DNA from: an uncultured cyanobacterium
Lineage (GTDB): Bacteria; Cyanobacteriota; Cyanobacteriia; PCC-6307; Cyanobiaceae
Assembly (NCBI GenBank): GCA_963697335.1
Contig: CAVONQ010000018.1
Coordinates: 288,001 to 352,000, forward strand
DNA length: 64,000 nt
Reading direction: 5' to 3'
Positions 22,890 through 34,527 of the stretch are shown here, one piece after another. The notes under the pieces were generated by a model, which saw only the letters and a program-made list of their open reading frames with translations, did not search any database and was not told where the DNA came from. Made by a program: the position numbers and the translations under genes. How positions within the stretch are numbered: position 1 is the first letter of the stretch; every line of letters starts with the position of its first letter.

Positions 22890-23929
22890 TGCCCGCGCCG
22901 ATGAACCGCCCCCCCTCCAGCTCCCCGCTCCGCCCCCGCCTGCTCTCCTCGCTGTGCTCCCTGCTGCTGGTGCTGGGGATCAGCCTGGGGCTGGGCGGCT
23001 GCGTCACCACCGGCCTGGCCCGCACGGTCGACAGTCCCTGGCAGTCCGTGCCCCTCAACACCACCGCCAACCCTCTGGCCGTGGCCTTCTCCGACGCCGA
23101 CCACGGCTTCCTGGTGGGGAGCAACCGGCTGATCCTGGAAACCAACGACGGCGGTGCCAGCTGGGAGGAGCGGGCCCTCGATCTGCCCGAGGAGGAGAAC
23201 TTCCGCCTGATCAGCATCGACTTCCGCGGCGACGAGGGCTGGATCGTGGGCCAGCCCGGCCTGCTGCTGCACAGCTCCGATGCCGGCCGCAACTGGAGCC
23301 GCCTGTTCCTCGACACCAAGCTGCCCGGTGAGCCCTATCTGGTCACCGCCCTGGGCCGGGACACCGCCGAACTGGCCACCAGCGTGGGAGCCATCTATGA
23401 CACCAGCGATGGCGGCGCCAGCTGGCAGGCCCGGGTGGGTGATGCGGCCGGCGCCGTGCGCGAGCTGCGCCGCAGCCCCGATGGCCGCTACGTGAGCGTC
23501 AGCAGCCTGGGCAATTTCTTCTCCACCTGGAATCCCGGCCAGGAGGTGTGGCAGGTGCACCAGCGGGTGAGCAGCCAGCGCCTGCAGACCATCGGCTTCC
23601 GCCCTGACGGCACGCTGTGGATGCTGGCCCGCGGCGCCCAGATCCGCTTCGGCAGTGATGCCGCCGACCCCGAGCAGTGGAGCAAGCCGGTGATCCCGAT
23701 CACCAATGGCTACGGCTACCTCGACATGGCCTGGGACCCGCGCGGTGGGATCTGGGCCGGCGGCGGCAGCGGCACCCTGCTGGTGAGCAGCGACGACGGC
23801 CGCAGCTGGCAGCAGGACCCGGTAGGGGCCCAGGAGCCCTCCAACTTCACCCGGATCGTGTTCAGCCGCGACGGCAGCAAGGGCTTCGTGCTGGGCGAGC
23901 GCGGCTCCCTGCTGCGCTGGGTGGGCTGA
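22886..23929 (+). CDS. ycf48: Photosystem II assembly factor Ycf48/HCF136
   Basis: Lipobox LGGC, BNR repeats (TNDGGASW, SSDAGRNW, SDDGRSW), VSSLGNFF. Lies upstream of psbE. Confidence 0.96.
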   Translation: MMPAPMNRPPSSSPLRPRLLSSLCSLLLVLGISLGLGGCVTTGLARTVDSPWQSVPLNTTANPLAVAFSDADHGFLVGSNRLILETNDGGASWEERALDLPEEENFRLISIDFRGDEGWIVGQPGLLLHSSDAGRNWSRLFLDTKLPGEPYLVTALGRDTAELATSVGAIYDTSDGGASWQARVGDAAGAVRELRRSPDGRYVSVSSLGNFFSTWNPGQEVWQVHQRVSSQRLQTIGFRPDGTLWMLARGAQIRFGSDAADPEQWSKPVIPITNGYGYLDMAWDPRGGIWAGGGSGTLLVSSDDGRSWQQDPVGAQEPSNFTRIVFSRDGSKGFVLGERGSLLRWVG

Positions 23930-24049
23930 GGGACCGGCTGGGATCCGGTGGTGTTTCTCAGGCTCGCCAACTTCTGTAACCAAGGGGGGCTGCCGCTCTC
24001 CCTGGGCCAGGGCCTCCCCCTAGGATCGCCGGGCTGAACGCTTGTCGCT

Positions 24050-24298
24050 ATGGCTGCCGGCTCTACAGGGGAACGTCCGTTCTTCGAAATCATCACCAGC
24101 ATTCGCTACTGGGTGATCCATGCGGTCACCTTGCCTGCGATCTTTCTTGCTGGCTTCCTGTTCGTGTCCACTGGCCTGGCCTATGACGCCTTCGGCACGC
24201 CTCGCCCTGACGCCTACTTCCAGGCCCAGGAGAGCAAGGCTCCCGTCGTGAGCCAGCGCTACGAGGGCAAGAGCCAGCTTGACCTGCGCCTGCCATAA
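24050..24298 (+). CDS. psbE: Cytochrome b559 alpha subunit
   Basis: [38 protein letters not shown]. Confidence 0.98.
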
Positions 24299-24304
24299 AC
24301 CCCC

Positions 24305-24442
24305 ATGACCCAGTCTCCCGTCTCGACCACGCCGCGCAACTACCCGATCTTCACGGTGCGCTGGCTCTCCGTTCACGCCCTGGGCATTCCCACGGTGTTC
24401 TTTCTGGGGGCCCTGGCGGCCATGCAGTTCATCCGTCGCTGA
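24305..24442 (+). CDS. psbF: Cytochrome b559 beta subunit
   Basis: Manual translation [45 protein letters not shown]. Confidence 0.97.
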
Positions 24443-24453
24443 GGTCCACTGCC

Positions 24454-24573
24454 ATGCAACGCAACCCAAACCCCAACAACCTGCCGGTTGAGCTCAACCG
24501 CACCAGCCTCTACCTGGGGCTGCTGCTGGTCTTCGTCACCGGTGTGCTGTTCACCAGTTACTTCTTCAACTGA
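24454..24573 (+). CDS. psbL: Photosystem II protein L
   Basis: Manual translation [39 protein letters not shown]. Confidence 0.97.
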
Positions 24574-24588
24574 TCCGGAGGCCACCCC

Positions 24589-24789
24589 ATGAGCGGCAAG
24601 AAATCCAACATTCCTGACGGCCGGATCCCGGATCGCCTGCCCGACGGTCGTCCGGCAGTGGCCTGGCGCTCCCGCTGGACTGCAGGCGTATTACCCCTGT
24701 GGCTGGTGGCCACCGCCGGCGGCATGGCCGTGATCTTCGTGGTGGGCCTGTTCTTCTACGGCTCCTACACCGGCGTCGGCTCTGCCTGA
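24589..24789 (+). CDS. psbJ: Photosystem II protein J
   Basis: [34 protein letters not shown]. Last gene of psbEFLJ. Confidence 0.96.
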
Positions 24790-24835
24790 ACCCTGGCCTG
24801 AACTCCGGCCCAAGCCACCCCCAGCGATGCATCTC

Positions 24836-24868
24836 CCCCGGTGGACAGCCAGGCTGCCACCGGGGTTT
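24836..24868 (+). terminator. GC-rich hairpin after psbJ (putative terminator or 3' stabilising stem)
   Basis: CCCCGGTGG(A)CAGC-CAG-GCTG-CCACCGGGG followed by only TTT. Confidence 0.6.
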
Positions 24869-24924
24869 CCTGTGGGAGATGGCTTCTGTGCACCTCTGAC
24901 CCCCGGCCCGTTCCCCGCTCTCCG

Positions 24925-25596
24925 GTGAAGAAGCGCACCCTCCTGAATCACGGGGCCCTGGCCTGGGTTGCGGGTGCTCTGCTCAACGCCTACGGCCAGC
25001 TGATCCTGCTCACCTCCCGCATCGTGGTGCGCCCTGACCAGCTCAGTGCCAGCTTGATCGGCCCGCAGGGGCGCCCGGTGATCTATGCGCTCTGGCATTG
25101 CCATGTGTTCTTCATGCCGATCCTGCGCATCAGCAGCGGACGGCCCGTGGCGGTGCTGCTCAGCGCCCACCGCGATGCTCAGATCGTGGGCGTGGCGGCC
25201 CGCATGCGCGGCGTTGAGCTGGTGGCCGGCTCCTCCACGCGTGGTGGTGTGCGCGCCTATCTGCAACTGATCCAGCTGCTGCGCAGGGGCCGTTCCATCT
25301 GCATCACCCCGGATGGCCCCAGGGGCCCCGCCCGGCGCGTCAAGCCAGGCGTCGTGCACCTGGCCCAGCAGTCCGGCTGTGCCGTGGTGCCGGTGGGCCT
25401 GGCCGTGCGCCGGGGACGGCGGCTGCGCTCGTGGGACCGCACCCTGCTGCCGTTCCCCTTCTGCCGGGCCGTGCTCACCCTGGGGGCGCCCCTGTGGTTG
25501 CCGCCCGTGGACGATGCCGAGGCCCTCGCCCTGCAGGCTGAACAGCTGGAGGCGGCCCTGGAAGCTGCTTCGGAGCAGGCCACCCGTGCCTTCTGA
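24925..25596 (+). CDS. DUF374 family acyltransferase (LpxJ-like lipid A late acyltransferase)
   Basis: IYALWH, LLSAHRDAQIV, AGSSTRGG, ITPDGPRGP, SWDRTLLPFPF (DUF374 motifs). First gene of the lipid A operon. Confidence 0.82.
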   Translation: MKKRTLLNHGALAWVAGALLNAYGQLILLTSRIVVRPDQLSASLIGPQGRPVIYALWHCHVFFMPILRISSGRPVAVLLSAHRDAQIVGVAARMRGVELVAGSSTRGGVRAYLQLIQLLRRGRSICITPDGPRGPARRVKPGVVHLAQQSGCAVVPVGLAVRRGRRLRSWDRTLLPFPFCRAVLTLGAPLWLPPVDDAEALALQAEQLEAALEAASEQATRAF

Positions 25597-26923
25597 GCCG
25601 CTGAGGCCGCTGTTGCTGGGCCTGCGCCTGCTGCAGACCCTGCTCACCCCCGGGATCCTGCTGCTGCTGCTGCTGCGGCTGTTGCAGGGCAAGGAGGAGT
25701 TCCGTCGCTTGCCGGAGCGGCTGGGCTGGGCTGGCCAGGAGCGCCCCCCCGGCCCCCTGATCTGGCTGCATGGCGCCAGCGTCGGTGAGCTCACGGCGCT
25801 GTTGCCCCTGGTGCGGGAGCTGGGCGCAGCCACGGCCCCACCAGGTCTGGAGCCCCCGGTCGTGCTGGTCACCTCGGTGAGCCGCAGCTCGGCCCAGCTG
25901 GCCCAGCGGCTGCTGCCGCAGGGGGTGATCCATCAGCTGGCGCCGGTGGACCACTGGCTGGCCATGGCCCTGTTCCGGCGGCACTGGCGGCCCCAGCTGG
26001 GTCTGCTGGCGGAGGCTGAACTCTGGCCGGAGCTGGTGCTCGCCATGCCGCGGTTGCACCTGGTCAATGCCCGCATGAGCGAGCGCTCCTTCCGTCGCCA
26101 CCGCCGCCTGCCGGCCTATGCCGCCTGGCTCTATGGCCGTGCCCGCCTCTGCTGGGCCCAGTCCGAGCCCGATGCGGCCCGCCTGCGTCGGCTCGGCGCT
26201 CCCCGGGTGGTGGTGGTGGGCTCCACCAAGCGGGACGCCGATCCCCTCGCCACGGACGGGGCGATCCTGGCCCGGCTGCAACCGCTGCTGCGCCGCCCGG
26301 TGCTGCTGCTGGCCAGCAGCCATGCCGGTGAGGAGCACCTGCTGCTCCAGGCCCGCCCGCTGCTGCAGCAGCACCTGGGCCCGCTCACCCTGGTGCTGGT
26401 GCCGCGTCACCCGCCGCGGGCTGCCGCCGTGCTCGAGCTGGCCCGGCGGCAGGGCCTTGTGGCCATTCTCTGGAGGGAGCTGGCCGCCGGAGGCCCGGCT
26501 GACCATGCTGAGCTCGACGTGCTGGTGGTGGATGTCCTGGGGGCGATGGGCAGCTGGATGGCGGCGGCGGATCTGGTGGTGATGGGCGGCAGCCTGGCTG
26601 CGGGGGGACGGCGGGTGGGGGGCCACAATCCCCTGGAGGCGATCCGCGCCGGCAAGCCGGTGGTGTGCGGGCCGGACATGGCCAACTTCGCCGGCCTGAG
26701 TGAGGAGCTTCAGGCCGCCGGTTGGCTCCATGCCTGCCCCACCGCCGAGCTGCTCTGGGCTCGGGTGGTGGAGCTGCTGAGCCGGGGAGCGCCGTCGCCA
26801 CCCCCCTTGCGTCTGGAGGGTCCCTCGCGCCGCATCGCCAGGCGCCTGATCGCTGAGCTGGCCACTGCCGAGCTCGCCGCGGCCCGCCTTGCCGAAACCA
26901 GCCTGGCCCGGGAGGGCCGTTGA
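25586..26923 (+). CDS. waaA: 3-deoxy-D-manno-octulosonic acid (Kdo) transferase
   Basis: GKEE..RLPERLG, IWLHGASVGE, HQLAPVD, HWRP..EAELWP, VNARMSERSF, ASSHAGEE, LVPRHP, MGGSL..GGHNPLEA, GPDMANF. Confidence 0.9.
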   Translation: MPSEPLRPLLLGLRLLQTLLTPGILLLLLLRLLQGKEEFRRLPERLGWAGQERPPGPLIWLHGASVGELTALLPLVRELGAATAPPGLEPPVVLVTSVSRSSAQLAQRLLPQGVIHQLAPVDHWLAMALFRRHWRPQLGLLAEAELWPELVLAMPRLHLVNARMSERSFRRHRRLPAYAAWLYGRARLCWAQSEPDAARLRRLGAPRVVVVGSTKRDADPLATDGAILARLQPLLRRPVLLLASSHAGEEHLLLQARPLLQQHLGPLTLVLVPRHPPRAAAVLELARRQGLVAILWRELAAGGPADHAELDVLVVDVLGAMGSWMAAADLVVMGGSLAAGGRRVGGHNPLEAIRAGKPVVCGPDMANFAGLSEELQAAGWLHACPTAELLWARVVELLSRGAPSPPPLRLEGPSRRIARRLIAELATAELAAARLAETSLAREGR

Positions 26924-28014
26924 TGCTGATCAGGCCGCCTGCGTTCCTCTACCAGCGCGGCCCCTGTCTGAGGGCCCGGCTGCTGCGGCCCCTGGCCGTG
27001 CTCTATGCCCTCGCCACCGGGCTGCACCGTGGTTGGGTGCAACCCCTGCGCCCAGAGGTGCCGGTGGTGTCGATCGGCAACATCACCCTCGGCGGCACCG
27101 GCAAGACCCCCCTGGTGATCGGTCTGGCCCGGGAGCTGGGCCGGCGGGGGGTGCGCCTGGCCGTGCTCACCCGCGGCTACGGCAGCGGCCGCCGCACACC
27201 GATCCGCCTGGAGGGCGGCCGCGGCCGGGAGCCGCTGGCGCTGGAGGCGGGGCGGCGCGCCGCCCTGCGGCAGGTGGGAGATGAGGCCCTCGAGCTGATG
27301 GGCAGCCTGCCTGGCGTGCCGGTATGGGTGGGGTCTGATCGCCGCTCCTCGGCCCGCCAGGCGGTGGCCGAGGGGGCCGAGCTGCTGCTGCTGGATGACG
27401 GCCTGCAGCACTGGTCTCTGGCCCGCGACTGTGACGTGACCGTGCTCGATGAGCGCCATGGCCTCGGCAATGGGCTGCTGTTCCCTGCCGGACCCCTGCG
27501 CGAGCCGGCCTCCCAGCTGGGGCGTGCCGACCTGCTGGTGCTCACCGGCAGCGGTGGTTCTCCCACCGCCGGCGGCGACTCCAGCGAGGGCCTGCCCGAT
27601 CTGGGGGGGCGCGTCGAGCCCGAACAGCTGGGCTGGCCCTCCGGCAAGCCCTGGTTGCGGGTGCCCGCCACGCTGCAGCCCGCCCCCAGCCTGCGGGGAC
27701 GGCCGCTGCTGGCCTTCTGCGGCATCGGCTTGCCAGGCAAGTTCTTTGCGGCGCTGCGCCAGGCGGGGTTGCAGCTGGTGGGGAGCGAGGCCTTCCCTGA
27801 CCACCACCCCTATGCTCAGGCCGATCTGGAGCGGCTGCTGGCCATGGCCCAGGCCCGGGGAGGAGCCACGCTGGTGACCACCGTGAAGGACTGGCATCGC
27901 CTGCCCCCCCACTCCCGCAGCGTGGTGGCGGCCGTGCCCCTGGTGCTGCAGCCTGAGGCGCTCAAGGCCCTGGCTGATCTGGTGCAGGAGCGGTTGCGTC
28001 TGGCATGGAGCTGA
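26923..28014 (+). CDS. lpxK: Tetraacyldisaccharide (lipid A) 4'-kinase
   Basis: PVVSIGNITLGGTGKTP, LTRGYG, GDE, LDDGLQH, GNGLLFPAGPLRE, AFCGIG.P..F, FPDHH, TT.KD. Confidence 0.93.
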   Translation: MLIRPPAFLYQRGPCLRARLLRPLAVLYALATGLHRGWVQPLRPEVPVVSIGNITLGGTGKTPLVIGLARELGRRGVRLAVLTRGYGSGRRTPIRLEGGRGREPLALEAGRRAALRQVGDEALELMGSLPGVPVWVGSDRRSSARQAVAEGAELLLLDDGLQHWSLARDCDVTVLDERHGLGNGLLFPAGPLREPASQLGRADLLVLTGSGGSPTAGGDSSEGLPDLGGRVEPEQLGWPSGKPWLRVPATLQPAPSLRGRPLLAFCGIGLPGKFFAALRQAGLQLVGSEAFPDHHPYAQADLERLLAMAQARGGATLVTTVKDWHRLPPHSRSVVAAVPLVLQPEALKALADLVQERLRLAWS

Positions 28015-29141
28015 GCCCGGCCCCATTGCGGCTGCTGGTGGTGGCGGGTGAGGCCTCGGGTGACCTGCACGGCGGCGCCCTGCTGCAGCAGCTGCGCTCA
28101 CGCCTGCCCGAGGCCCAAATCCTGGGCGTGGGGGGAGAGCGGATGCGGGCCGCCGGCCTGCTGCAGTTGGCCGATGTGCGCCATCTCTCCGCTGCCGGGG
28201 TGGTGGAGATCCTGGGCAGCCTGGGCCGCCACTACCGGGTGATGCGGCTGCTCAAGCGCCAGATGGACCGCCACCGCCCGGCGGCCGTGGCCCTGATCGA
28301 CTACCCCGGCTTCAATCTCCTGGTGGCCCAGGAAGCTCACCGGCGCGGCATTCCGGTGTTCTTCTACATCGCCCCCCAGGTGTGGGCCTGGGGCCGGGGC
28401 CGGGCTCGGCGGATGGCCGGCTACATCGATCGCCTGGCGGTGATCTTTCCCTTCGAGGAGCCCCTGTTCAACGCCCATGGGCGCAGCTTCGCCCGCTACG
28501 TGGGCCATCCCCTGATGGATGGGCTGGCGGTGACCTCCAGCCGGGAGGCCACCCTGCAGCGCCACGGCTTCGATCCCGAGCGGCGCCTGCTGCTGCTGCT
28601 GCCCGGCAGTCGCCGCGCCGAGATCCGCTTGCTGCTGCCGGCCCTGCTGGCCGCCGCCGCCGTGTTTGGTCAGGATGGCTGGCAGGTGGGCCTGCTGCGG
28701 GCCCCCACGGTGGACCAGGCCTTTCTGGAGCAGGTGGCCGGCGATGCTCCCCTGCCCCACTGCATCTCCGGTGACGACACCTACAACCTGCTCCACGCCG
28801 CCGATGGCGCCCTGGTCAGCTCCGGCACCGCCACCCTGCAGGCTGCCCTGCTGGGCTGTCCCCACGTGATCGTCTACCGCTTCTCGCGGCTCACCTATCT
28901 GCTGGCCAGCCTGGCCACCCGCCACCGGGTGATCGGCCTGCCCAACGTGATTCTCGGCCGGGTCGTCTTTCCGGAGCTGGTGCAGCGGGCCGTGACCCCG
29001 GCCAACCTGGTGCGGGAGCTGCGCCAGCTGCTGGCCGATCCGGCCGGGGTGCGGCAGGCCGTGGAGGAGCTCCGCAGCAAGATGGGCCCGCCGGGCGCCT
29101 CGGCCCGGGCAGCGGCTGAACTGGTGGATCTGGTGCGATGA
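28005..29141 (+). CDS. lpxB: Lipid-A-disaccharide synthase
   Basis: VAGEASGDLHG, IDYPGFNL, YIAPQVWAWG, IFPFE, YVGHPL, LLPGSRRAEI, SGTATL, IGLPNVI..PELVQ. Confidence 0.94.
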   Translation: MELSPAPLRLLVVAGEASGDLHGGALLQQLRSRLPEAQILGVGGERMRAAGLLQLADVRHLSAAGVVEILGSLGRHYRVMRLLKRQMDRHRPAAVALIDYPGFNLLVAQEAHRRGIPVFFYIAPQVWAWGRGRARRMAGYIDRLAVIFPFEEPLFNAHGRSFARYVGHPLMDGLAVTSSREATLQRHGFDPERRLLLLLPGSRRAEIRLLLPALLAAAAVFGQDGWQVGLLRAPTVDQAFLEQVAGDAPLPHCISGDDTYNLLHAADGALVSSGTATLQAALLGCPHVIVYRFSRLTYLLASLATRHRVIGLPNVILGRVVFPELVQRAVTPANLVRELRQLLADPAGVRQAVEELRSKMGPPGASARAAAELVDLVR

Positions 29142-30886
29142 GCAGGCCTGTGTACCGGCGTTTCCTGGCCTACGGGAAGCCCTATCTGTGGCCCACCTTT
29201 CTGCTGGCCCTGCTGTTCAACTTCGGCTACGGCGCCTCCACCGGCTTCGTGCCGCTGGTGATCCGCCACCTCTTCGACGACGTGCTGCCCAGCAGCGATC
29301 GGGGCCGGCTCTACAGCGCTCCGGCGGTGATCCTGGGGGTGATCGTGTTGCGGGCCGTCTGCCAGTACCTGGGGGCCTACCTCACCGAGACGGTGAGCCA
29401 GTCGATCACGGCGGACCTGCGCTCCGATCTGGCCGCCAAGGTGATGGTGCTGCCGCAGTCGTACATCGACCGCCATCCCTCCAGCACCCTGATCTCGCGC
29501 CTGCTCAGTGATGTGACGCTGGTCAAGACCGGCATCGTGGATGGCTTCTCCTCGATCTTCAAGGATTCGCTCACCCTGCTGGCCCTGGTGCTGGTGGCCA
29601 TCTACCAGGACTGGCTGCTGGCCCTGATCGCCTTCATCCTCTTCCCGGTGGCGATCCTGCCGGTGCTGCGCTCCTCGAAGAAGGTGCGGCGTCACTCCAG
29701 CCGGGGCCAGTCGAGCCTGGCGCGGCTGGCCAGCTACCTGCAGGAGTCGCTGGTGGGCTCCAGGGTGGTGAAGGTCTTCGGCATGGAGGCCTATGAGCTG
29801 CGGCGCTTCCGGGAGGAGAACACCGCCGTGCTGAAAGCCGCCCTGCGCACCACCCGCGCCAAGCTCGCCAACCAGCCCCTGATGGAGCTGCTGGGGGCAG
29901 TGGGGTTCAGTGCGGTGCTGGTGTATGGCGGCGAGGCGGTGATCAGCGGCAGCCGCACCACCGGCAGCTTCTTCGCTTTTCTCACCTCCCTCTACCTCTG
30001 CTACGCGCCCTTCAAGGGGCTGGCGAAGGCCAATGCAGTGCTGCAGCAGGGGGTGTCGGCTGCCCAGGACCTCTTCGCCATCCTCGATACCCCAGAGGAT
30101 CCGGTGGAGGCCGCAGCTCCGCGGCAGCAGCAGGGGGTGGCCCGGGAGCTGCGGGCAGAGGCCCTGAGCTTCGGCTACGGCACCGACCCCGTGATCCGCG
30201 AGCTGGAGCTGGTGATCCCCGTGGGCAGCACGGTGGCCCTGGTGGGCCCCAGCGGTGGCGGCAAGAGCACGATCATCGATCTCTTCTGCCGCTTCTACGA
30301 CCCAGATGGCGGCCGAATCTGCATTGATGGCCTCGACATCCGCGAGCTCTCCCTGGCCTCGTTGCGGAGCCTGATCTCGGTGGTGGATCAGAACACCTTT
30401 CTGTTTAACGACACGGTGGCCAACAACATCGCCTATGGCCATGCCGCGGCCTCGCGCCAGGCCGTGGAGGCCGCTGCCCGGGCCGCCAATGCCCACGGCT
30501 TCATCGCCCAGCTGCCCCAGGGCTATGACACGCTGATCGGCGAGAACGGCACCCTGCTGTCCGGCGGCCAGCGGCAGCGCATCGCCATCGCCCGCGCCCT
30601 GATCAAGAACGCCCCGATCCTGTTGCTCGACGAGGCCACCTCGGCTCTGGATTCCGCCTCGGAGCAGGTGGTTCAGGAAGCCCTGGATCGCCTGATGAGC
30701 AACCGCACCACCCTGGTGGTGGCCCATCGGCTCTCCACGGTGGTGAACGCCGACCGGATCTGCGTGATCGAGGCCGGCGCGATGGTGGAATCCGGCACCC
30801 ACGCCGAGCTGATGGCTCACGGCGGCCGGTACGCCGCCTTATTTTCGACACAATTCGCAAACCCAACCTTGGTGTCGCCCCGATGA
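29138..30886 (+). CDS. msbA: MsbA-type lipid A export ABC transporter (fused permease/ATPase)
   Basis: N-terminal TM domain plus GPSGGGKS, LSGGQRQRIAIARA, LLDEATSALD, VVAHRLST. Overlaps lpxB (ATGA). Confidence 0.85.
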   Translation: MSRPVYRRFLAYGKPYLWPTFLLALLFNFGYGASTGFVPLVIRHLFDDVLPSSDRGRLYSAPAVILGVIVLRAVCQYLGAYLTETVSQSITADLRSDLAAKVMVLPQSYIDRHPSSTLISRLLSDVTLVKTGIVDGFSSIFKDSLTLLALVLVAIYQDWLLALIAFILFPVAILPVLRSSKKVRRHSSRGQSSLARLASYLQESLVGSRVVKVFGMEAYELRRFREENTAVLKAALRTTRAKLANQPLMELLGAVGFSAVLVYGGEAVISGSRTTGSFFAFLTSLYLCYAPFKGLAKANAVLQQGVSAAQDLFAILDTPEDPVEAAAPRQQQGVARELRAEALSFGYGTDPVIRELELVIPVGSTVALVGPSGGGKSTIIDLFCRFYDPDGGRICIDGLDIRELSLASLRSLISVVDQNTFLFNDTVANNIAYGHAAASRQAVEAAARAANAHGFIAQLPQGYDTLIGENGTLLSGGQRQRIAIARALIKNAPILLLDEATSALDSASEQVVQEALDRLMSNRTTLVVAHRLSTVVNADRICVIEAGAMVESGTHAELMAHGGRYAALFSTQFANPTLVSPR

Positions 30887-32433
30887 CCATCGCCCCCAGC
30901 CGTTCCCCGGCCCCCTCCGGCGCCACCTGGCAGCGGGCCGACTGGGCCAGCTCCTTCCGCAACGTGGGCACCGAGCTCGCCGATGTGGCCGTCACGGCGA
31001 GTCGGGGCACCATCCCGGCCGAGCTCCGCGGCAGCCTCTACCGCAACGGCCCGGGCCGGCTGGAGCGGGGCGGGCAGTGGGTGCACCACCCCTTCGATGG
31101 CGACGGCATGATCACGGCCCTGCGCTTTGAGGGCGGCGCGGCCCGGCTCAGCAACCGCTTCGTGCGCACGGAGGGCTGGCAGGCCGAGGAGAGCGCCGGC
31201 CGCTTCGTCTATCGCGGCGTGTTCGGCACCCAGAAGCCGGGGGGGGCTCTGGCCAACGCCTTCGACCTGCGGCTCAAGAACATCGCCAACACCCACGTGG
31301 TGCGCCTCGGCGACCAGCTGCTGGCCCTCTGGGAGGCGGCCGAGCCCCATGCCCTCGATCCCCAGACCCTCGAAACCCGGGGCCTCAGTCGCCTTGAGGG
31401 GGTGCTCAAGCCAGGTGAGGCCTTCAGCGCCCACCCCCGCTTCGACCCCGGTCACCGGGGGGCGCCGCGGATGGTGACCTTTGGGGTCAAGAGCGGGCCG
31501 CGCAGCACGATCCGGCTGATGGAGTTCGCCACGGCCGACGACCCTGCCGCCGGCGTGCGGGCGGGCCAGCTGCTGGCGGAGCGCCACGACACGATGGCGG
31601 GCTTCGCCTTCCTGCACGACTTCGCCATCACCCCCAACTGGGCCGTGTTCCTGCAGAACGCCATGGCCTTCAACCCCCTCCCCTTCGTGTTTGGCCAGAA
31701 GGGGGCGGCCCAGTGCCTGGCCTCCAAGCCCGGCGAGATCGGCCGCTTCTTTCTGGTGCCCCGTCCCGGCAGCGCGGCGGCGGAGCGCCATGCCAAGCCC
31801 CTGGAGGTGCCAGCACCCGAGGGCTTTGTGTTCCACCACCTCAATGCCTTCGAGGATGAAGCCACGGGCGAGCTGGTGCTCGATTCGATCTTCTACGCCG
31901 ACTTCCCCTCGATCGGCCCCGGGGAGGACTTCCGCTCCGTGGACTTCGAGGCCATTCCCGAGGGGCAGCTGAAGCGCTGCCGCATCGATCTGGAACGGGC
32001 CGCCACTGATCCCGCCGGGGCCGTGAGCTCCGACTGGCTCGAGCAGCGCTGCTGTGAGTTCGCCACGGTGCATCCGGCCCGCCAGGGACGCGAGGCCCGC
32101 TTCGCCTGGATGGCCGTGACCGAGCAGGAGCGCGGCAATGCGCCGCTGCAGGCCATCGAGAAGCTGGATCTCAGCAGTGGGGAGCGCCGTGTGTGGTGCG
32201 CCGGGGCACGCAGCTTCGTGAGCGAGCCCGTGATGGTGCCCCGCGCCGCCACAGGGTCTGAAGCCGCCACCGGTTCTGAAGACGACGGCTGGGTGCTCTG
32301 CGTGGTGTGGAACGGCGCCCGCTGCGCCAGTGATCTGGTGATCCTCAACGCCGACGATCTCTCGGAGCAGGCGGTGCTGGAGCTGCCCCTGGCCATCCCC
32401 CATGGCCTGCACGGCAGCTGGGTGGCGGCCTAA
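30883..32433 (+). CDS. Carotenoid cleavage oxygenase (RPE65/ACO family, Diox1-like)
   Basis: GSLYRNGPG, HPFDGDGM, KNIANT, FSAHP, FLHDFAIT, FVFHHLNAFE, CEF, FVSEP, HGLHGSW (four Fe-binding His). Confidence 0.94.
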   Translation: MTIAPSRSPAPSGATWQRADWASSFRNVGTELADVAVTASRGTIPAELRGSLYRNGPGRLERGGQWVHHPFDGDGMITALRFEGGAARLSNRFVRTEGWQAEESAGRFVYRGVFGTQKPGGALANAFDLRLKNIANTHVVRLGDQLLALWEAAEPHALDPQTLETRGLSRLEGVLKPGEAFSAHPRFDPGHRGAPRMVTFGVKSGPRSTIRLMEFATADDPAAGVRAGQLLAERHDTMAGFAFLHDFAITPNWAVFLQNAMAFNPLPFVFGQKGAAQCLASKPGEIGRFFLVPRPGSAAAERHAKPLEVPAPEGFVFHHLNAFEDEATGELVLDSIFYADFPSIGPGEDFRSVDFEAIPEGQLKRCRIDLERAATDPAGAVSSDWLEQRCCEFATVHPARQGREARFAWMAVTEQERGNAPLQAIEKLDLSSGERRVWCAGARSFVSEPVMVPRAATGSEAATGSEDDGWVLCVVWNGARCASDLVILNADDLSEQAVLELPLAIPHGLHGSWVAA

Positions 32434-33047
32434 GGGCTGGCGAACAGCTGGCGCAGCTGGGGTTCGAGGGCCGCGAAGGCGCGGCCCCGATGGCCCAGGC
32501 GGGCCTTGGTGGCACTGTCCATCTCGGCAAAGGTCTGGCCGGCCTCGGGCACGTGGAACACCGGGTCGTAGCCGAACCCCCCTGTGCCCCGGGGCGCCTC
32601 CAGAATCACGCCCGGACAGTGGCCCTCCACCGCCAGCCGCACCCGGCCGCGGGGGTCGGCCACGGCCAGGGCGGCGCTGAACTGAGCCCTGCGCTCCTCG
32701 GTGTCAGCCAGTTCCTCGTCGGCCAGTTCCTCCAGCAGCCGGGCGATGCGGGCGGCATCGGTGGCGGCGTAGCGGGCTGAATGCACTCCAGGGGCGCCGC
32801 CCAGGGCCGCCACGCAGAGGCCGGAATCGTCGGCCAGGGCCCAGCACCCTGTCAGGCGGGCCACGACGCTCGCCTTGATGGCGGCGTTCTCGGCGAAGCT
32901 GCTTCCCGTTTCCTCCACCTCCAGGCCTTCGGGCTGGGGCCTCAGCTCCAGGCCCAGCCCCGCCAGCAGCCGGCTGAATTCGCCCACTTTGCCGGCGTTG
33001 CCACTGGCGATCACCAGCACGCCGGGTTTGCCGTTCGTGGCGTCCAT
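32430..33047 (-). CDS. rdgB: Non-canonical purine NTP pyrophosphatase (Ham1 family)
   Basis: ASGNAGK, VEETG.SF.ENA..KA, ADDSGL..ALGGAPGVHSARY, GFGYDP, HRGRA. Confidence 0.94.
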   Translation of the reverse strand: MDATNGKPGVLVIASGNAGKVGEFSRLLAGLGLELRPQPEGLEVEETGSSFAENAAIKASVVARLTGCWALADDSGLCVAALGGAPGVHSARYAATDAARIARLLEELADEELADTEERRAQFSAALAVADPRGRVRLAVEGHCPGVILEAPRGTGGFGYDPVFHVPEAGQTFAEMDSATKARLGHRGRAFAALEPQLRQLFASP

Positions 33048-33057
33048 GGCTGCGGCC

Positions 33058-34527
33058 TCACACCTGCTCGGCCAGCTGCTGCGCCCAGGCGAGCACGCAG
33101 GCCACCCGTTCCGGGCTGGGGGCCTCGCAGTAGAGCCGCAGCAGTGGCTCGGTGCCCGAAAAGCGCAGCATCAGCCAGTGGCTGGGCCCCAGCCGCAGCT
33201 TTACGCCGTCGGTGCGGATCACCTCCTGCACCGGCAGCCCGGCCACCTCGGCCGGCGGCTGGGCGGCCAGCAGGGCCTCAAGCCTGGCCCGGGCCGCCAT
33301 GTCCGGCAGGCGCAGGTCGAGCCGGTCGTAGGCCGCAGCCCCGCCACAGCGCTGCTGCAGGGCATCGAGGCGCTGGCCCAGGGGCACACCACCCTCCACC
33401 AGCGCCTCGATCAGCAGCAGGGCGGCAAAGGGGGCGTCCCGTTCCGGCAGATGCATGCCGAACCCCACGCCGCCCGATTCCTCGCCCCCCACCAGCACCT
33501 CGCCGGCCAGCATTTCGGCGGCGATGTACTTGAAGCCCACCGGTTTTTCCAGCACGGTGCGGCCCAGCCCCTCGGCCACCTGCTGCATCAGGTCGGAGCC
33601 GCTCACGGTCTTGATCACCAGCCCAGGCAGCTGGCGGGCCCGGGCCAGGTGGTCGATGAACAGGGGCATCAGCAGCTGGGTGCTGCAGAAGCGGCCCTGT
33701 TCATCCACCGCCGCGAGGCGGTCGCCATCGCCGTCGAACACAATCCCCATGGCCGGTTTGCCGGCCGCCGTGCTGGCGCGCACCGCGGCGATGAGCTCCT
33801 GCAGGTAGGGGGCCAGGGGCTCGGGGGGATGGCCGCCGAAGAGGGGGTCCCGCTGGCTGCGGATCTCGTGGATGGCCCCGCTGGCCAGGGCCTGGGGACC
33901 CAGCAGGGCAGGCAGCACGCCGGCGGCGGAGCCGTGCATCGGATCCACGATCACGCTGAGGCCCAGGCGCTCCAGCCCCGCCGCCAGGGCGTCGGTGTCC
34001 ACCTTGGCCCGCAGGCCGGCCAGGTAGGGGCCGAGGGCATCAAACCGGGGCGTGTCGGCCGGCCGCGGCACGGTGATGCCGCCGGCGGCCAGGCGCGTTT
34101 CCACCCGCTGGGTGAAGTCTCCCTCCACCGAGCCGCCGAAGGGCCCCTTGATCTTCAGGCCGAGCCATTCGGGCGGGTTGTGGCTGGCGGTGATCACCAG
34201 GGCGCCGAGGGCGCCGCGCTCCACCACCGCCCAGCTGCTGGTGGGAGTGGGGGTGGGGGTGGCGGCAAGCACCGGCTCCAGTTCGGCGCCGCGCACGGCG
34301 GCGCAGATGGCCTCGGCCAGCTCCGGTGCCAGGAAGCGGCGGTCATAGCCGATCACCACTTCGCGGCTGCGCAGCTCCGCCGGTGCCGAGGAGGCCAGTT
34401 CGCGGGCGGCGGCCGCCGCCACCGGCAACAGCCGCTCCACGGTGATGTCCACCCCGAGGATGCCCCGCCAGCCATCGGTGCCGAAGCTGATCGGAGCCGC
34501 GTCCAGGGGCAGCGGGGCTGAAACCAT
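33058..34527 (-). CDS. Phosphoglucomutase/phosphomannomutase family protein
   Basis: FGTDGWRG, ITASHNP, FDGDGDR, VGFKYI, GGEESGG, RFSGTEPLLRLY. Confidence 0.94.
   Translation of the reverse strand: MVSAPLPLDAAPISFGTDGWRGILGVDITVERLLPVAAAAARELASSAPAELRSREVVIGYDRRFLAPELAEAICAAVRGAELEPVLAATPTPTPTSSWAVVERGALGALVITASHNPPEWLGLKIKGPFGGSVEGDFTQRVETRLAAGGITVPRPADTPRFDALGPYLAGLRAKVDTDALAAGLERLGLSVIVDPMHGSAAGVLPALLGPQALASGAIHEIRSQRDPLFGGHPPEPLAPYLQELIAAVRASTAAGKPAMGIVFDGDGDRLAAVDEQGRFCSTQLLMPLFIDHLARARQLPGLVIKTVSGSDLMQQVAEGLGRTVLEKPVGFKYIAAEMLAGEVLVGGEESGGVGFGMHLPERDAPFAALLLIEALVEGGVPLGQRLDALQQRCGGAAAYDRLDLRLPDMAARARLEALLAAQPPAEVAGLPVQEVIRTDGVKLRLGPSHWLMLRFSGTEPLLRLYCEAPSPERVACVLAWAQQLAEQV

Follow-up and report, generated by a model that had tools for sequence, protein, structure and literature searches.

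We report that a 64,000-nucleotide stretch of DNA from an uncultured cyanobacterium of the family Cyanobiaceae (contig CAVONQ010000018.1, positions 288,001 to 352,000; 'the window' below) carries, at positions 24925–30886, a module of five genes for the late steps of lipid A synthesis. Together with genes elsewhere in the genome, the module probably represents an anciently acquired gene set through which a Cyanobium-like lineage gained a complete, canonical Raetz pathway. The genes are present and intact, are distributed together among related genomes and hold a conserved position in them. The window has a G + C content of about 70% and belongs to a 543-kb contig of a 2.58-Mb genome (G000) assembled in 18 contigs, with an estimated completeness of 98.8%.

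The five open reading frames (ORFs) all lie on the forward strand and are free of stop codons. The first, a DUF374/LpxJ-like gene (24925–25596; 223 residues, GTG start; PF04028), is predicted to encode a late (3′ secondary) lipid A acyltransferase, and is followed by waaA, encoding the Kdo (3-deoxy-d-manno-octulosonate) transferase of glycosyltransferase family 30 (25586–26923; 445 residues, GTG start; PF04413), and lpxK, encoding tetraacyldisaccharide 4′-kinase (26923–28014; 363 residues, ATG start; PF02606 and TIGR00682). A second lpxB, for lipid A disaccharide synthase, comes next (28005–29141; 378 residues, ATG start; TIGR00215), apparently a xenologue of the genome's own copy (contig C7), and the module closes with a gene for an MsbA-type lipid A flippase, an ATP-binding cassette (ABC) exporter (29138–30886; 582 residues, ATG start; TIGR02203). 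Read directly from the sequence, the DUF374 gene and waaA overlap by 11 nucleotides (waaA GTG at 25586), the lpxK ATG at 26923 sits within a TGATG at the end of waaA, lpxK and lpxB overlap by 10 nucleotides (lpxB ATG at 28005), and the msbA ATG at 29138 falls within an ATGA at the end of lpxB. The preliminary description of this DNA as holding five intact, co-oriented, overlapping ORFs after psbJ is therefore borne out.

Each of the five proteins could be placed in its family. The DUF374 protein scores 78.5 bits against PF04028 (cut-off 26.8) and keeps 18 of the 20 columns conserved at ≥ 90% among 29 non-cyanobacterial homologues; DUF374 is LpxJ, a 3′ secondary acyltransferase family whose activity has been established in enzymes from Helicobacter, Campylobacter, Wolinella and Rickettsia (PMC6148475). 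Its gene lies directly upstream of waaA, an arrangement also found in alphaproteobacteria. WaaA matches the N-terminal domain of its glycosyltransferase family with 149 bits (PF04413, cut-off 23.9) and the PDB structures 4bfc (E = 1.6e-14) and 2xci (E = 8.8e-14), and retains 45 of the 47 columns that are conserved among 41 outside homologues. LpxK scores 277 bits against PF02606 (cut-off 27) and 192 bits against TIGR00682 (cut-off 92), contains the P-loop GGTGKTP and has every one of the 22 columns that are invariant in an alignment of 30 sequences, including G57, G58, G60, K61, D158, D159 and H294. The module LpxB and the native LpxB score 270 and 293 bits, respectively, against TIGR00215 (cut-off 190), and the module copy keeps 33 of 34 columns conserved in homologues outside the cyanobacteria. 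MsbA falls in a 39-row clade (support 99) of MsbA proteins linked to lpxK, apart from six ABC paralogues of the same family of genomes. The profile scores thus uphold the identities first given to WaaA, LpxK, LpxB, the DUF374 protein and MsbA, the last falling just short of its equivalog cut-off (see below).

The pathway is wider than the window, with lpxI and a gene of the LpxL family at two further loci. The preliminary description had proposed a search of the remaining genome for lpxH or lpxI and for the native lpxB; lpxI and the native lpxB were found, and no LpxH was found in the genome. The lpxI gene is a solitary, two-domain gene on the forward strand between hisS and hisB (contig C18:286740–287570; locus L222:8740–9570), ending 431 bases before window position 1; its product scores 75 bits against PF17930 (LpxI_N) and 132 bits against PF06230 (LpxI_C), each with a cut-off of 25, and keeps 27 of 31 columns conserved in homologues outside the cyanobacteria. 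The LpxL-family acyltransferase gene (PF03279, 100 bits) lies on the reverse strand about 150 kb from the module, upstream of a DUF2227 gene (C18:164549–165568; locus L223:6549–7568); its product misses all NCBIfam cut-offs. Because both genes lie elsewhere and yet co-occur with the module, the pathway is larger than was at first proposed. The native bamA-lpxC-fabZ-lpxA-lpxB operon is kept on contig C7.

For the supply of Kdo, adjacent kdsD, kdsA and kdsC genes were found at a contig end (C3:1–6038; locus L034), kdsD being of the KpsF/GutQ type and KdsA scoring 388 bits against a cut-off of 314. They adjoin two transposase genes, one of the IS110 family and one DDE-associated, and about 2.9 kb of this region is missing from the closest relative, genome G106. 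That relative holds two copies of kdsB about 0.6 kb apart (C1:258000–277000; locus L199), in a region flanked by inverted repeats of about 0.6 kb that match C8:113088–113714 of the present genome. A capsule-like cluster on contig C7 (locus L040:3526–15720) encodes a fusion of KpsS with an acyltransferase domain, a KpsC-like protein in which PF05159 stretches recur, a cytidylyltransferase resembling PseF/NeuA, three DUF6716 glycosyltransferases, a sulfotransferase, and a NeuB joined to CBS and xylose-isomerase-like domains; this cluster is a possible second consumer of Kdo.

These genes suggest the following series of reactions. Native LpxA and LpxC, together with LpxD (seen in congeners), would form UDP-2,3-diacylglucosamine, which the acquired LpxI would cleave to lipid X. 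LpxB, probably the copy encoded in the module, would then give the disaccharide 1-phosphate, LpxK would phosphorylate the 4′ position to yield lipid IVA, and WaaA would add Kdo from CMP-Kdo. Secondary acyl chains would be added by the LpxJ-like enzyme and the unlinked LpxL-family enzyme, and MsbA would flip the product across the inner membrane. We infer the activities of the enzymes, the order of the steps and the identity of the product with the lipid A of the cell's outer membrane; a working LpxI-LpxB-LpxK-WaaA-LpxJ/LpxL-MsbA line yielding a phosphorylated Kdo-lipid A seems most likely from the gene content.

The distribution of the genes was followed in 151 family genomes, sampled evenly. 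Ten matches to LpxK were obtained: the present genome, all four genomes of its genus (g1), four of genus g47, and one fragment of 32 bits. WaaA gave nine strong matches (147–160 bits) in the same genomes as LpxK and five weak ones (19.6–27.4 bits) in two other genera. The same nine genomes hold the DUF374 gene; LpxI occurs in exactly these nine; and the LpxL-family gene occurs in these nine with four weaker matches in genus g8. The holders are thus always the present genome, the four of g1 and the four of g47. MsbA orthologues, at 71–89% identity, were found only in module holders (five of 61 genomes searched, the present one included), all other MsbA matches in these 61 genomes, including the paralogues of the present genome, being at ≤ 39% identity. 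The LpxK fragment (C151:28–183) comes from G026, a genome of 300 contigs and 89% completeness in a third genus, g27, where its contig is 1.7 kb long; it may be genuine or may stem from contamination during binning.

Oxygenic cyanobacteria seldom carry lpxK and waaA. A search of a 401-genome sample of the phylum with the LpxK profile found matches in 179 genomes, and the 30 singly listed families (175 genomes) gave only one strong match, in G047, a member of the present family, and two at E of about 5e-5. The earlier statement that cyanobacteria generally lack lpxK and waaA therefore holds, and with strong matches in nine genomes of the family sample the two genes are not widespread. Among the matches listed, the named LpxK homologues at 53–78% identity are all records of Cyanobium, Aphanothece, Synechococcus or Prochlorococcaceae, the cultured strain Cyanobium sp. 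NIES-981 being one example. At least 120 homologues reach ≥ 53% identity, and many are metagenomic, which indicates that the lineage is not environmentally rare.

The origin of the genes was studied by means of trees and gene order. In homology searches the LpxK score falls from 385 bits in the picocyanobacterial group to 270 bits for protein P0121 (49% identity) and then to ≤ 214 bits; the named kin of P0121 are metagenome-assembled genomes of Proteobacteria and Alphaproteobacteria. The LpxK tree comprised 134 rows (the window, eight relatives, 10 of 20 loci from another class of the phylum, 79 of 80 named loci, one being too short, six named proteins and 30 representatives). In this tree the picocyanobacterial clade of 15 rows (support 99 by the Shimodaira–Hasegawa-like approximate likelihood ratio test) is sister (91) to seven proteins including P0121, and this pair in turn has as its sister group (91) 57 rows, most of them alphaproteobacterial. 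The nearest outside contig, a metagenome contig of 52% G + C (L262) encoding a protein 97% identical to P0121, reads msbA-DUF374-waaA-lpxK, and is itself the sister of the picocyanobacterial proteins in the WaaA tree (97), within a clade dominated by alphaproteobacteria. LpxI branches within the alphaproteobacteria (100/100), well away from the LpxI of the other class. The order DUF374-waaA-lpxK was found in 20 of the 80 named proteobacterial loci, with msbA upstream in 12 of those. On this phylogenetic evidence LpxK, WaaA and LpxI have a foreign, alphaproteobacterial-type ancestry; the module LpxB and MsbA, judged by their own trees, are foreign as well. The preliminary description of a horizontally acquired module is therefore supported; lpxB and msbA are not demonstrably alphaproteobacterial.

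The transfer appears to be old. The G + C content at third codon positions (GC3) of the five module genes is 0.86–0.90, compared with 0.90 for the adjacent native gene for an RPE65-type oxygenase, and the equality of the two points to an old transfer, as was first proposed from the GC-rich codon usage; the outside contig L262, by comparison, has 52% G + C. Relative to the locus of G106 the module proteins are 90–96% identical and RPE65 97%, and relative to that of G047 the values are 52–75% and 76%, respectively. The two genera are reciprocally monophyletic in every tree (LpxK, LpxB, WaaA, LpxI and MsbA). Because the module identities fall together with those of RPE65, and the genera separate cleanly, the data fit a single old acquisition followed by descent.

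Several observations weigh against the reading of a completed pathway acquired in this way. Three of the proteins fall below equivalog cut-offs: WaaA has as its best NCBIfam match NF004387, at 239 bits against a cut-off of 617, LpxI scores 192 bits against 400 for NF047836, and MsbA, at 580.5 bits, is 21 bits short of the 602 required by TIGR02203. The NCBIfam WaaA models describe narrow subfamilies, so that membership of the wider family stands and equivalence to those subfamilies does not. Two genes of the pathway were not found in the assembly. One is lpxD, which is present in six of six congeners. The other is canonical kdsB, so that the search for a Kdo pathway suggested in the preliminary description succeeded for kdsD, kdsA and kdsC and not for kdsB, yet kdsB is present in five of five module-bearing relatives; the only PF02348 cytidylyltransferase in the genome is PseF/NeuA-like and, at 115 bits, under the cut-off. 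The lpxD neighbourhood of a relative (G077), flanking genes included, and the 19-kb kdsB region of G106 have no counterpart in the present genome, which suggests that the assembly is gapped, and both absences are probably due to such gaps, despite the estimated completeness. In addition, kdsA is common in genomes that have no module, being above the cut-off in 64 of the 151 family genomes and in 28 of 64 genera; Kdo must have other uses there, and is not foreign to picocyanobacteria. In the single-gene tree of RPE65 the module holders do not form one clade (approximately unbiased test, p = 0.004), a result driven by G085, which falls elsewhere in this poorly resolved tree; if so, a single gain passed on vertically would have to have been followed by losses or by internal transfer. 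Finally, the module LpxB stands on its own long branch, outside the alphaproteobacterial (97/96), native cyanobacterial and other-class clades, and MsbA falls outside the alphaproteobacterial clade of 19 rows (97), as part of a trichotomy that includes the MsbA of a Syntrophaceae locus with the order lpxB-msbA-lpxK. A single donor for the module is, as a consequence, not established.

These last two placements are what would be expected of a mosaic module, in which DUF374-waaA-lpxK and lpxI came from an alphaproteobacterial-type donor, lpxB and msbA from another donor or at another time, and the operon was assembled within the cyanobacterial lineage. The position of msbA, which is upstream of the DUF374 gene in alphaproteobacteria and in L262 and not downstream, is of the same kind. 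The LpxB tree, however, contains only seven alphaproteobacterial rows and has long branches, and a single unsampled donor with the gene order of the module might also account for the arrangement; we therefore regard a mosaic origin as somewhat unlikely. A query of the ESM Atlas with the module LpxB returned generic LpxB clusters only, with no informative taxonomy.

The presence of two lpxB genes bears on the function of the module. Both copies are intact, they are only 36% identical to each other, and the native operon has been retained; moreover, the module is supplied with an LpxB of its own, and LpxI is confined to module-bearing genomes, as would follow if the native LpxB took no part in the lipid X route. 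Two parallel lines might therefore be envisaged, in which the native LpxB makes a phosphate-free lipid A and the acquired LpxI-LpxB2-LpxK-WaaA-LpxJ-MsbA line makes a second, minor or conditional Kdo-lipid A that leaves the main one unconverted. Two copies of lpxB could also be plain redundancy, and we consider such a division of labour improbable. Conversion of the cell's lipid A by the completed Raetz pathway is the reading that we prefer, and we tentatively suggest, as a more specific proposal of which we are rather less than confident, that a widespread freshwater and brackish Cyanobium-like lineage makes a bis-phosphorylated, Kdo-linked, secondarily acylated lipid A by way of a captured alphaproteobacterial-type pathway, perhaps beside a native phosphate-free lipid A and with two LpxB enzymes.

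Vertical inheritance was considered because 175 of the 179 LpxK matches in the phylum sample come from 12 families (225 genomes) of another class, whose LpxK holders have genomes of 1.6–2.5 Mb and presumably constitute a non-photosynthetic class. That class still has lpxK, lpxI and lpxB, with LpxI in seven of eight genomes tested, and the late lipid A genes might thus be a relic of the ancestor of the phylum, lost in nearly all oxygenic cyanobacteria other than this lineage. The trees speak strongly against this. The other-class LpxK copies cluster separately, in one clade with those of Nitrospirota, Nitrospinota and Planctomycetota (96), and LpxK and LpxI of that class lie in different, well-supported clades from the picocyanobacterial proteins, which are sister to or within alphaproteobacteria and share with them the order DUF374-waaA-lpxK. 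A relic would also need dozens of independent losses, given the absence of strong matches in 29 other families and the ≥ 55 genera of the same family without the gene. Vertical inheritance from that ancestor is consequently very improbable, since the LpxK, WaaA and LpxI trees do not group the genes with the other-class copies.

The position of the module was compared in eight related genomes (four from its own genus, g1, and four from g47; three of the eight are single-contig), and the order psbE..psbJ-DUF374-waaA-lpxK-lpxB-msbA-RPE65 is identical in all eight. A chimeric assembly or a contaminant contig with proteobacterial genes, an artefact of which the preliminary description had warned, can be dismissed, because the module lies between native psbJ and native RPE65 on the 543-kb contig, has this same arrangement in every relative, including the single-contig ones, matches the host in GC3, and is spanned at its junctions by contigs from sequencing runs (run X1, which may be the source sample, covers 24000–27252 and 27263–32500 with 20 and 16 differences, and a contig of run X12 bridges msbA into RPE65 at 30700–31838). 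RPE65 is a core gene, found in 41 of 41 family genomes at 58–81% identity. An empty site, with psbJ followed directly by RPE65, was seen at none of 27 loci in module-free genomes; in five complete module-free genomes psbJ and RPE65 lie on opposite strands, separated by 16–30 kb in four of them and by 480 kb in the fifth. The module therefore occupies a rearrangement junction, at which no clean insertion scar can be defined.

Comparison with known systems places the gene set closest to that of alphaproteobacteria, in which the cluster msbA-DUF374(lpxJ)-waaA-lpxK has the same DUF374-waaA-lpxK order and strand as the module; these bacteria are also nearest in the LpxK, WaaA and LpxI trees and, like the present genome, use LpxI in place of LpxH. 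In contrast to the alphaproteobacterial cluster, the module has msbA last rather than first and a divergent lpxB inserted between lpxK and msbA, and lpxI, which in alphaproteobacteria is paired with lpxB, stands alone between hisS and hisB about 25 kb from the module. The host also differs, being an oxygenic cyanobacterium that keeps its own lpxB. The predicted steps are those of the Escherichia coli Raetz pathway (LpxA, C, D, H, B, K, WaaA, LpxL, LpxM and MsbA), with LpxK, WaaA, LpxB and MsbA of the same families, although LpxI replaces LpxH and a DUF374/LpxJ-type enzyme replaces LpxM.

The four-enzyme cyanobacterial pathway (lpxA, lpxC, lpxD and lpxB) is represented here likewise by the native bamA-lpxC-fabZ-lpxA-lpxB operon. 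One paper describes cyanobacteria as having only these four genes (PMC3087551), and another describes Synechococcus WH8102 and CC9311 as lacking the 4′-kinase, Kdo and lipid A phosphate (PMC4515613); a 2026 paper still states that cyanobacteria lack canonical lipopolysaccharide (LPS) (PMC13018214). Unlike those marine Synechococcus strains, the present lineage adds lpxI, lpxK, waaA, the lpxJ-like and lpxL-like genes and msbA. The enzymes and the pathway are textbook ones; the novelty is that a defined lineage of picocyanobacteria has them through an old transfer. A literature search, which did not reach subscription-only papers, found no description of these genes in picocyanobacteria, and in this sense the earlier claim of an undescribed system is supported as to its biology, but NCBI records of public genomes already name lpxK homologues.

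If the proposal is correct, cyanobacterial LPS is of more than one chemical kind, and neighbouring picocyanobacterial genera would differ sharply in surface charge, in recognition by phages and grazers, and in endotoxin-assay readings. Sister genera that have or lack the module would then constitute a natural test case for lipid A structure, outer-membrane charge, susceptibility to phages and grazers, and response in endotoxin assays. The gene set would also offer a clean example of the completion of a pathway through gene transfer at three separate loci.

The left border of the module is formed by native photosystem II genes on the forward strand, identified by reading their translations: psbE (24050–24298), psbF (24305–24442), psbL (24454–24573) and psbJ (24589–24789), this group (24050–24789) lying directly upstream of the DUF374 gene. 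The right border is the native core gene for the RPE65-type carotenoid cleavage oxygenase, on the same strand (30883–32433; PF03055, 418 bits). The RPE65 start lies in the msbA stop, through an ATGA at 30883–30886, an adjacency kept in all eight relatives; from this overlap the core gene may be translationally coupled to the acquired operon.

A promoter scan of 23800–33200 found no sigma-70-like promoters, and the same interval contains five terminator-like sites against 2.4 expected. None of these lies in the spacer between psbJ and the DUF374 gene, and this spacer folds no better than shuffled sequences (z = −0.82). A terminator-like GC hairpin followed by TTATTTTC occupies 30820–30848, in the final 70 bases of msbA and just 5′ of the RPE65 start. 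The AT skew is about −0.21 across 24001–30000, which takes in most of the module, compared with roughly 0 to −0.15 in the rest of the window.

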